Source: a virus. Taken from it: 22,232 nucleotides of DNA. Positions 15,749 through 15,823 of this stretch are shown here, piece by piece. Each line of letters starts with the position of its first letter. Within the stretch, counting starts at the first letter, position 1. The translations under genes and the position numbers were made by a program. Under the pieces are notes generated by a model. The model searched no databases. It worked only from the letters and a program-made list of their open reading frames with translations, and had not been told where the DNA came from. The DNA lies in IMG/VR virus record IMGVR_UViG_3300013126_005437, positions 1 through 22,232 of that record, one strand, 5' to 3'.

Positions 15749-15823
15749 GATCCGTTAGCTTAGCCTGGCCTAAAGCCCGGGTCTCTAAAACCTGGATCGT
15801 GGGTTCGAATCCCACACGGATCA
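15749..15823 (+). tRNA. amber-suppressor tRNA (anticodon CUA)
   Basis: Acceptor GATCCGT/ACGGATC, D-arm GCTT-AGCCTGGCCTA-AAGC, anticodon stem CGGGT/ACCTG with loop CTCTAAA (U33, CUA, A37), 4-nt variable loop, T-arm GTGGG-TTCGAAT-CCCAC. Confidence 0.7.

Follow-up and report, generated by a model that had tools for sequence, protein, structure and literature searches.

A tRNA gene with the anticodon CUA lies at positions 15749-15823 of a 22,232-nt stretch of viral DNA (IMG/VR record IMGVR_UViG_3300013126_005437), referred to below as the window, i.e., the whole stretch that was analysed. Upstream of the tRNA are two open reading frames (ORFs), a PTH2-like gene and a mini-ORF, each with an in-frame TAG a few codons after its ATG. 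The tRNA is probably (a rough probability of two in three, 0.68) a functional phage amber suppressor that acts in trans as a translational gate for a small set of linked ORFs, and not as a genome-wide recoder. Across very divergent huge phages, conservation extends to the two TAGs, to the frame that spans them and to a CUA tRNA at a distance of up to ~2 kb.

The tRNA gene is on the + strand and belongs to class I, with the anticodon at 15785-15787, a G1:C72 pair and discriminator A73 at position 15823; CCA is not encoded. The original prediction, made from the sequence alone, placed a CUA tRNA here, and ARAGORN and Rfam agree with it. Of the 15 tRNA genes that ARAGORN calls in the window, the final one is at 15749-15824 (+) with anticodon CTA, and Rfam RF00005 matches 15749-15823 with 58.7 bits (gathering score 29; E=1.4e-10), model positions 1-71 being covered fully. 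Read from the sequence, the acceptor stem GATCCGT/ACGGATC has 7 Watson-Crick pairs, and the D stem GCTT/AAGC closes an 11-nt D loop that contains G18G19. The anticodon loop C-T-C-T-A-A-A (15783-15789; CUCUAAA in the RNA) is 7 nt long and has U33, the variable loop is 4 nt, and the T stem GTGGG/CCCAC carries the T loop TTCGAAT. All four stems are paired, as had been claimed, but "fully paired" overstates the case slightly, as the anticodon stem CGGGT/ACCTG (5 bp) has 4 Watson-Crick pairs and one G-U wobble. The one-base likeness to a tRNA-Trp loop, also pointed out earlier, is trivially true but uninformative; the CUA tRNAs resemble no particular isoacceptor. Two tRNA-Gln genes had been reported as well and are present, UUG at 7008-7081 and CUG at 7699-7773 (ARAGORN); unlike the CUA tRNA, the phage Gln tRNAs have U1:A72.

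Chance is far from sufficient to explain the match to a tRNA. Relatives have this CUA tRNA at the syntenic position as well. From the PTH2 loci described below, 40 unique CUA tRNAs were recovered, and 34 diverse ones were aligned for covariation. Compensatory changes are seen in 17 of the 18 predicted pairs, and C-U-A is invariant. At 1:72 most of them have G:C and some C:G; most discriminators are A, the others G or U, and the variable loop is short in all. Stems, loops, Rfam score and covariation are those of a canonical elongator tRNA (RF00005). Judged from these features the window tRNA is a bona fide amber-suppressor-type tRNA, with CUA in a sound tRNA body, and the alignment indicates that the family is under selection for tRNA function. 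A reading as an initiator tRNA that starts translation at UAG was rejected. Bacterial initiator tRNAs are marked by a C1xA72 mismatch and three G:C pairs at 29-31:39-41; here G1:C72 is paired, and the anticodon stem has G29:C41, G30:C40 and U31:A39. After the CUA tRNA, the next in frequency is tRNA-Met(CAU), with 47 genes in the PTH2 loci scanned (the window and L032-L100).

By precedent Gln or Lys would most likely be the residue inserted at UAG, Lys being rated the next candidate after Gln. Gln is the default for amber suppressors according to the Borges preprint (10.1101/2021.08.26.457843). Extra TAGs inside the PTH2 domain, found in LR756501 and at locus L052, align to variable columns in which E is the commonest residue.

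The PTH2-like ORF is at 14880-15236 (+), 0.86 kb upstream of the CUA tRNA. It opens with ATG AAA TAG GTT AAT CAA AAA TTA, the TAG being at 14886-14888, continues with a 115-residue domain and ends at a TAA (15234-15236). No ATG, GTG or TTG is found between the TAG and codon 103. Because a usable start codon is missing after the TAG, the ORF is predicted to need UAG readthrough at codon 3. The translated domain matches Pfam PF01981 with 34.6 bits (cutoff 23), covering 3-112 of the 115 profile positions; archaeal Pth2 structures (PDB 1rzw, 2zv3) match end to end at E ~2e-4, and the mycobacteriophage homologues of the protein carry the annotation peptidyl tRNA hydrolase. Gene prediction on the source contigs did not list this ORF.

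When IMG/VR was scanned with a PTH2 alignment, 64 loci were obtained, on contigs of up to 429 kb. An ATG followed by 1-6 codons, TAG and the domain is present in 63/63 of these loci with an intact 5′ end. All relatives in the window clade share the TAG-leader design although their leaders differ, e.g., MK, MKKPFYY and MKNYTDGGTGTPM; the leaders before TAG over the whole set include MK, MTH, MKDT, MKET, MN, MT, MG, MKN and MKKPFYY. TAG-led PTH2 genes are also found in the GenBank records LR756500, LR756501, LR756502, LR756504 and LR745206. Dereplication left 51 distinct leader-TAG contexts from huge-phage contigs, with a PTH2 identity of 36-94%. The gating stop is TAG in 51/51 contexts, never TAA or TGA, and the frame across it is always kept. 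A plain leader stop would not be expected to stay TAG, because TAA makes up 83% of stops (counts from LR756500 are given below). The base 3′ of TAG is a purine in 50 of the 51, and the codon that follows varies (GTT, CTT, ACT, ATT, ATA, GTA, AGC and others) and is mostly unable to initiate. Since this codon varies, it does not appear to be a reinitiation start.

CUA tRNAs are present in 55 of the 64 IMG/VR loci, either 0.8-1.9 kb downstream of PTH2 or starting 128-271 nt upstream of it; most of the loci that have none are truncated on the side where it would lie. For two window proteins, the major vault protein (MVP)-like protein encoded upstream of PTH2 (50-55% identity) and the PTH2-like protein (52-61%), the closest relatives in GenBank are in the huge-phage genomes LR756500 (462 kb) and LR756501 (735 kb). 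Al-Shayeb et al. 2020 (PMC7162821) assign the largest of their huge-phage genomes to the Mahaphage clade and predict Bacteroidetes hosts. A search of 185,579 species genomes of bacteria and archaea showed no copy of the module in a cellular genome, the sole match being a 425-kb phage contig. This contig (L114, JBBACR010000001.1, 425,361 bp) was deposited as a 'Candidatus Pacearchaeota archaeon' metagenome-assembled genome. It contains the PTH2 module of the phages and probably represents a phage genome that was misbinned. On the evidence of these searches the PTH2/CUA-tRNA module is phage-specific.

Other forms of PTH2 occur in these phages. In relatives, the gated copy is followed ~5 kb further downstream by a second PTH2-like paralogue (~185 aa) with an ordinary ATG and no TAG (L011 8151-8705; L015 6755-7324; L004 from 13687; L005 from 15001), and L014 has a second TAG-led N-terminus of PTH2, which is joined to an endonuclease-like ORF. 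Prevotella phage Lak-B4 (L111, MK250023.1, 5347-6252), which is TAG-recoded, has a PTH2 homologue without a TAG leader and an ochre-type tRNA (anticodon UUA) ~0.45 kb upstream of it. The Lak-B4 frame reads MNI-TAA-ISLVMKV and could be an analogous TAA gate, yet it has a normal ATG 4 codons on.

The mini-ORF is at 15287-15319 (+) and reads ATG AAA AAG CAC AAC TAG GTA CGA CCT CCT TAA, with the TAG at 15302-15304, i.e., MKKHN-UAG-VRPP-stop. It was searched for in other loci as a pattern of M, up to 5 residues, TAG, 1-8 residues, [RK][AGSP]P, a tail of 0-5 residues and a stop. The pattern matches in 53 of the 65 eligible loci, at most 1.6 kb downstream of PTH2 and on the same strand; elsewhere there are 2 matches in 728 kb. 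In the 462-kb genome LR756500 the only match is the one beside PTH2. When the internal stop of the pattern is changed to TAA or TGA, the PTH2-adjacent position gives 0 matches, and other positions give 1 and 0, respectively.

Relatives have MKH-UAG-INRPP, MRH-UAG-ISLPP, MEH-UAG-IIRPP, MK-UAG-TCKPP, MKET-UAG-IHIRPP, MK-UAG-IIRGPT, MR-UAG-IARAPT, MM-UAG-IARPPN, MM-UAG-IYRAPP and MTH-UAG-IRSP, all followed by a stop, and the huge phages have MK-UAG-IKITIRGPTYLF (LR756500) and MS-UAG-SRPP (LR756501), likewise followed by a stop. The codons vary synonymously, Arg being CGA, CGC, AGA or CGG and Pro being CCT, CCA or CCG, and this variation argues for selection on the peptide encoded after the TAG. 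The conserved post-TAG peptide in turn is independent evidence of ribosomal readthrough. The reading frames in need of UAG decoding thus comprise the PTH2-like ORF and the mini-ORF. Programmed readthrough had been offered in the original prediction as one possible use of the tRNA, and it is this possibility that is supported, although in an unexpected form; no predictor gave the tRNA another anticodon or called it a pseudogene.

The mini-ORF peptides end in R/K-[AGSP]-P, then P, T, N or the stop, and an exact RAPP is present in L077, L079 and L082 (MM-UAG-IYRAPP, MM-UAG-ILRAPP). This end resembles arrest peptides (RAPP/RGPP, SecM, Pro-Pro-stop) as a partial match, and the mini-ORF may be regarded as a putative arrest sequence. 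Motifs of the RAPP/RGPP type arrest ribosomes (PMC10951233, PMC12992588).

In the mechanism proposed here, ribosomes that start at ATG 14880 would meet UAG at codon 3, where host release factor 1 (RF1) would free a dipeptide unless a charged CUA tRNA decodes the codon. The CUA tRNA would have to outcompete RF1 at an early UAG both for PTH2 and for the full mini-ORF peptide, and PTH2 output would be proportional to suppressor activity. With mRNA and tRNA both required, the arrangement would be a coherent feed-forward AND gate, and a closed gate would waste only a di- to penta-peptide. The mini-ORF would report the same signal: its R-P-P-stop (R-G-P-T in other lineages) would be translated only after readthrough. 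R-P-P-stop would be expected to slow peptide-bond formation or termination, and the ribosome would be parked 3′ of the PTH2 cistron, upstream of the conserved ORF orf106 and, in the window clade, of the tRNA gene.

A tentative suggestion as to purpose, with the odds somewhat against it, is that the dose of a peptidyl-tRNA-recycling enzyme is tied to the level of stop-codon suppression. PTH2 dosed in this way would remove the peptidyl-tRNA that suppression, readthrough and stalling leave behind, and the gate would also delay these functions until the phage tRNA set is active. A timer for a tRNA-based takeover of translation and negative feedback on the suppressor are alternatives to the recycling role that the data do not separate from it. 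More generally, and with a chance that falls a little short of even, Mahaphage-type huge phages carry a self-contained "amber regulon" that consists of tRNA(CUA), PTH2 gated at codons 2-8 and an arrest-type mini-ORF, with suppression as a quantitative internal signal that would time, or feed back on, the phage's own tRNA and translation-takeover programme. Cluster C mycobacteriophages may carry a related form.

Two of these mycobacteriophages, Bxz1 and Myrna, which use the standard code, have the PTH2 gene 0.1-0.3 kb from a CUA tRNA. In Bxz1 (L100, NC_004687, 3977-4730) and Myrna (L110, NC_011273, 3977-4534) an in-frame ATG or GTG and a TAG come directly before a GTG, which is the annotated start of the 'peptidyl tRNA hydrolase'. 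The CUA tRNA, 0.13-0.3 kb downstream, is annotated 'tRNA-OTHER' in Bxz1 and 'tRNA-Ser' in Myrna.

Several points weigh against a dedicated amber gate. In Bxz1 and Myrna the TAG immediately precedes a GTG with a well-spaced Shine-Dalgarno sequence, so that their PTH2 may not require suppression and gating there is doubtful. In the phage PTH2 family the position of the catalytic Lys is variable (S, A, I, Q or Y) and the catalytic Asp aligns with the Glu of an invariant E-P-D; the catalytic residues of Pth2 are taken here to be the Lys of the G-K motif and the Asp of D-A-G-x-T. The hydrolase activity or specificity of the PTH2-like protein may thus differ. Of the mini-ORF endings, RPP-stop, RGPT, RAPT and KPP-stop match the characterised RAPP/RGPP arrest motifs only in part, the nascent chains are very short (peptides of 7-14 residues), and the ORF that follows the mini-ORF differs between two clades, with no homology found between orf106 and its counterpart. 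Nearest-isoacceptor scoring of the CUA tRNAs over 275 tRNAs found none that is consistently closest, and the TAGs fall at non-conserved positions, which give no pointer to the inserted amino acid. Two genes of the window that end at TAG would be extended by suppression, a cost to be tolerated. Finally, the whole-genome code test described next uses LR756500, a relative at 55-61% protein identity.

The alternative that survives best, although it is unlikely, is a genome-wide recoding of TAG to sense (genetic code 15) in the style of crAss-like and Lak phages, as had been suggested for this tRNA. The window would then be a standard-code "early" part, with TAG-rich late genes outside it. In recoded phages the early and tRNA regions do stay readable in the standard code, and CUA tRNAs are encoded (10.1101/2021.08.26.457843), and the window covers only part of its genome, so that recoding is possible solely for the remaining part. 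However no signal of it was seen when ORFs were compared under codes 11, 15 and 4 in the window, in ~150 kb of relatives and in the complete LR756500. In the window, reading TAG as sense extends no convincing gene besides the PTH2-like one; this is also the only real gene that lengthens when code 15 is compared with code 11, a comparison that had been proposed as a check. Protein family searches found no release factor and no aminoacyl-tRNA synthetase encoded in the window.

Of the ~30 window genes, two terminate at TAG, SPFH (28-1347, +), to which suppression would add 17 aa, and TROVE/vWA (Ro60-like; 16798-18534, +), to which it would add 21 aa. The TROVE stop is TAA in 7 of 9 matching relatives; because its TAG is not conserved, the TAGs of TROVE and SPFH look like collateral rather than programmed targets. 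TAG and TAA stops swap between orthologues of the window clade, which also argues against recoding. The ~150 kb of close relatives, including 20-kb stretches downstream of the window region, follow the standard code. All-against-all TAG-spanning alignments among the relatives were drowned in out-of-frame noise, and a frame-overlap filter was used instead; with it no TAG-interrupted gene besides the amber clients was found in the window and these relatives.

LR756500 is a complete 462-kb relative with the same tRNA and the TAG-gated gene. ORFs of at least 100 codons cover a fraction of 0.859 with code 11 and 0.873 with code 15, and 0.879 with a code-4 control, and no 10-kb bin of this genome stands out with a recoding signal. 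Its long ORFs (n=364) stop at TAA in 303 cases (83%), at TGA in 41 and at TAG in 20 (5.5%). Just two TAGs connect long ORF segments, and each of them has an ATG one codon on; junctions of this kind without an immediate start codon number 0. Code 15 is not supported for this phage group by these counts, and TAG appears to be an ordinary, rare stop elsewhere in these genomes. It should be noted that LR756501 has a second in-frame TAG in the PTH2 domain and two tandem CUA tRNAs (L097, LR756501.1, the 735-kb phage, 5992-8574; tRNAs at 8421-8494 and 8499-8574), and that L052 also has an in-domain TAG. The tandem tRNAs and the second in-domain TAG hint that LR756501 uses TAG more freely as a sense codon.

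Slightly less likely still is an account in which each TAG genuinely terminates a tiny upstream ORF, PTH2 is made by reinitiation or from a non-canonical start, and the tRNA is a passenger of the array, e.g., an insurance against nonsense mutations. The GTG directly after the TAG in Bxz1 and Myrna agrees with such an account, as do ATT, ATA or ATC after the TAG in many loci, which are capable of a weak start. PTH2 genes are located in tRNA-rich regions, so that some adjacency is expected, and the CUA tRNAs of XacN1 were found without a target (PMC5852040). However a mere stop would drift to TAA at 24-37% G+C, and the constancy of TAG in all 51 contexts is not what drift would leave. The frame is always preserved, and the next codon is often the non-initiating GTT, CTT, ACT, ACA or AGC. 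The conserved motif of the mini-ORF follows the TAG, with synonymous variation in its codons, and in many loci the tRNA is at a fixed distance of -128 to -144 nt.

It is very unlikely that the tRNA-shaped RNA is not a decoder and serves as a Y-RNA-like or tRNA-like partner of the TROVE and vault-like proteins. The TROVE/vWA gene is 1 kb downstream and the MVP-like gene 1 kb upstream, and bacterial Ro60 binds tRNA-like Y RNAs (reviewed in PMC7824862). Against this, the tRNA is complete and canonical with an invariant CUA, TROVE is near PTH2 in just 16 of 73 loci while a CUA tRNA is present in most, and Y-RNA families have no match in 14700-16850 even at E<=1. A tRNA-Pyl that inserts pyrrolysine can be dismissed, as the ARAGORN label 'Pyl' rests on the CUA anticodon only, no pyl genes were found among the window proteins, and the G18G19, normal T loop, 11-nt D loop and 5-bp anticodon stem are not those of tRNA-Pyl, which has a short D loop and a long anticodon stem and is missing G18G19/T-psi-C.

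The amber gate proposed for PTH2 and the mini-ORF can be set beside several known systems. The bldA tRNA-Leu(UUA) of Streptomyces controls TTA-containing genes, and the likeness lies in one dedicated tRNA that limits a few genes bearing a rare codon. In bldA, however, the codon is a sense codon, the tRNA is chromosomal and the targets are dispersed, whereas here a stop codon is contested with RF1, the tRNA is phage-borne and the targets are linked in cis. The RF2 gene prfB autoregulates by a frameshift at an in-frame UGA, and the lambda bar minigenes (2-3 codons) are linked to Pth; both recall the present case, the first by an early in-frame stop as a sensor of termination or decoding and the second by minigenes tied to peptidyl-tRNA hydrolase. 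Unlike in prfB, readthrough here would be by a dedicated tRNA and not by a frameshift, and an action of PTH2 on its own leader is unsupported.

Code-15 phages (crAss-like, Lak, Agate; 10.1101/2021.08.26.457843; PMC9523058) similarly have a CUA tRNA in a standard-code region, a proposed gating of genes with in-frame TAG, and a likely host phylum of Bacteroidota. They differ in that here TAG stays a stop genome-wide and is placed early (codons 3-8 of the gene) in two linked small ORFs, not scattered over late genes. Xanthomonas phage XacN1 (PMC5852040) and Bxz1, with its 'tRNA-OTHER', are large standard-code phages that likewise have a CUA tRNA and a peptidyl-tRNA hydrolase; their orphan CUA tRNAs had no known client, whereas here there is a conserved client pair. 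In a synthetic feed-forward circuit (PMC7969014), an amber codon close to the gene start and a co-regulated suppressor tRNA together give leak-proof AND-gate expression. This 'leak dampener' is engineered, and the phage locus would be its natural counterpart with an arrest-type amber ORF in addition. RAPP/RGPP, SecM (RAGP) and TnaC (R-P-stop) (PMC10951233, PMC12992588, PMC7897499) also involve a short upstream ORF that ends in R-[A/G/P]-P-[P/stop]. In contrast to these arrest peptides, the mini-ORF has 7-14 residues, its motif varies (RPP-stop, KPP-stop, RGPT, RAPT, RSP-stop), and it would be reached only via UAG readthrough.

No description of an amber-gated Pth or PTH2 gene or of an amber mini-ORF in phages was found in the open-access literature that was searched. 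Phage amber suppressors, tRNA-gated translation and programmed readthrough are known already; what appears to be new is the conserved linked client pair. Suppressor tRNAs of phages are usually taken as a sign of recoding or left without a target, as in XacN1, and conserved clients linked in cis give them a concrete role that can be tested in phages of the standard code. The two client ORFs are out of reach of gene finders. If the reading is true, the locus gates translation naturally by means of a stop codon, as synthetic amber circuits do by design, and links suppression to peptidyl-tRNA hydrolase and to ribosome-arrest biology, and it would be a plausible evolutionary intermediate toward full TAG recoding (code 15). 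The related pair of PTH2 and CUA tRNA in the culturable mycobacteriophages Bxz1 and Myrna puts experiments within reach.

Other elements of the locus surround these ORFs. The conserved protein gene orf106 (15388-15708, +) is between the mini-ORF and the tRNA. It is restricted to the window clade and was found in 22 loci by tblastn; neither orf106 nor its neighbours have a Pfam or PHROG match. An octamer, AACTAAAA, is present at 14862-14869 (+), 18 nt upstream of the PTH2 ATG, with further copies at 15270-15277 (17 nt before the mini-ORF ATG) and 15368-15375 (20 nt before orf106), both on the + strand. All 5 plus-strand copies (14862, 15270, 15368, 3397, 19307) are 10-21 nt before start codons, and such zones make up 5.4% of the window. 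This placement supports ATG 14880 and ATG 15287 as real starts. The octamer is shared with ordinary genes, and a Shine-Dalgarno sequence is absent there; AACTAAAA could be a translation-initiation or promoter element of the phage-host system.

A hairpin like that of an intrinsic terminator (14753-14781, +; 13 pairs and a T run) ends the upstream MVP-like gene, and no terminator-like sites were found between PTH2 and the tRNA. Because a terminator follows the MVP-like gene and none precedes the tRNA, it is suggested that PTH2, the mini-ORF, orf106 and the tRNA may form their own transcription unit. Upstream of the tRNA a direct copy of CATGGACA, read from the sequence at 15710-15717 (+), is followed by a 9-bp hairpin, GCATGGACA-TCT-TGTCCATGC (15721-15741, +), which is immediately upstream of the tRNA. 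The same repeat-plus-hairpin, with the hairpin built from the word of the repeat, follows the mini-ORF in relatives, e.g., after 760 in L033 and after 6383 in L077. Between lineages the stem sequence varies under a constant architecture, for which a role as RNA switch, processing site or operator is conceivable.

The window as a whole has 36.5% G+C, and its genes are almost all on the + strand. A megablast search of the window against GenBank phages gave no useful match. The encoded proteins include SPFH/Band-7, several GIY-YIG/NUMOD3 homing endonucleases, a glucosaminidase, a papain-like protease, two cold-shock proteins, a SiaC-like protein, the TROVE/vWA (Ro60-like) protein and an 830-aa MVP homologue (Vault_3 and MVP shoulder; 12255-14747, +). 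The MVP homologue, the TROVE/vWA protein, which is Ro60/TEP1-like, and the SPFH/flotillin-like protein are encoded within 19 kb, an echo of MVP and TEP1 in the eukaryotic vault. Phage and bacterial MVPs are reported in preprints (10.1101/2023.11.10.566534, 10.1101/872010).

A tRNA array at 6499-11666 has 14 genes set among homing-endonuclease-like ORFs (NUMOD3 at 9568-10179; a SegE-like ORF at 1469-2197). tRNA-Glu(UUC) and tRNA-Leu(CAA) are duplicated in the window. Several class I tRNAs of the array exceed the usual length (Cys 81 nt, Thr 85 nt, Pro 78 nt), a sign of possible insertions or introns. Inside the array, a small ORF (8941-9231, +) that is conserved in relatives shows sub-threshold matches to GNAT acetyltransferases (E ~0.005). 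GNAT toxins acetylate aminoacyl-tRNA, and Pth reverses the acetylation, so that a link between this GNAT-like ORF and the PTH2 module is conceivable.

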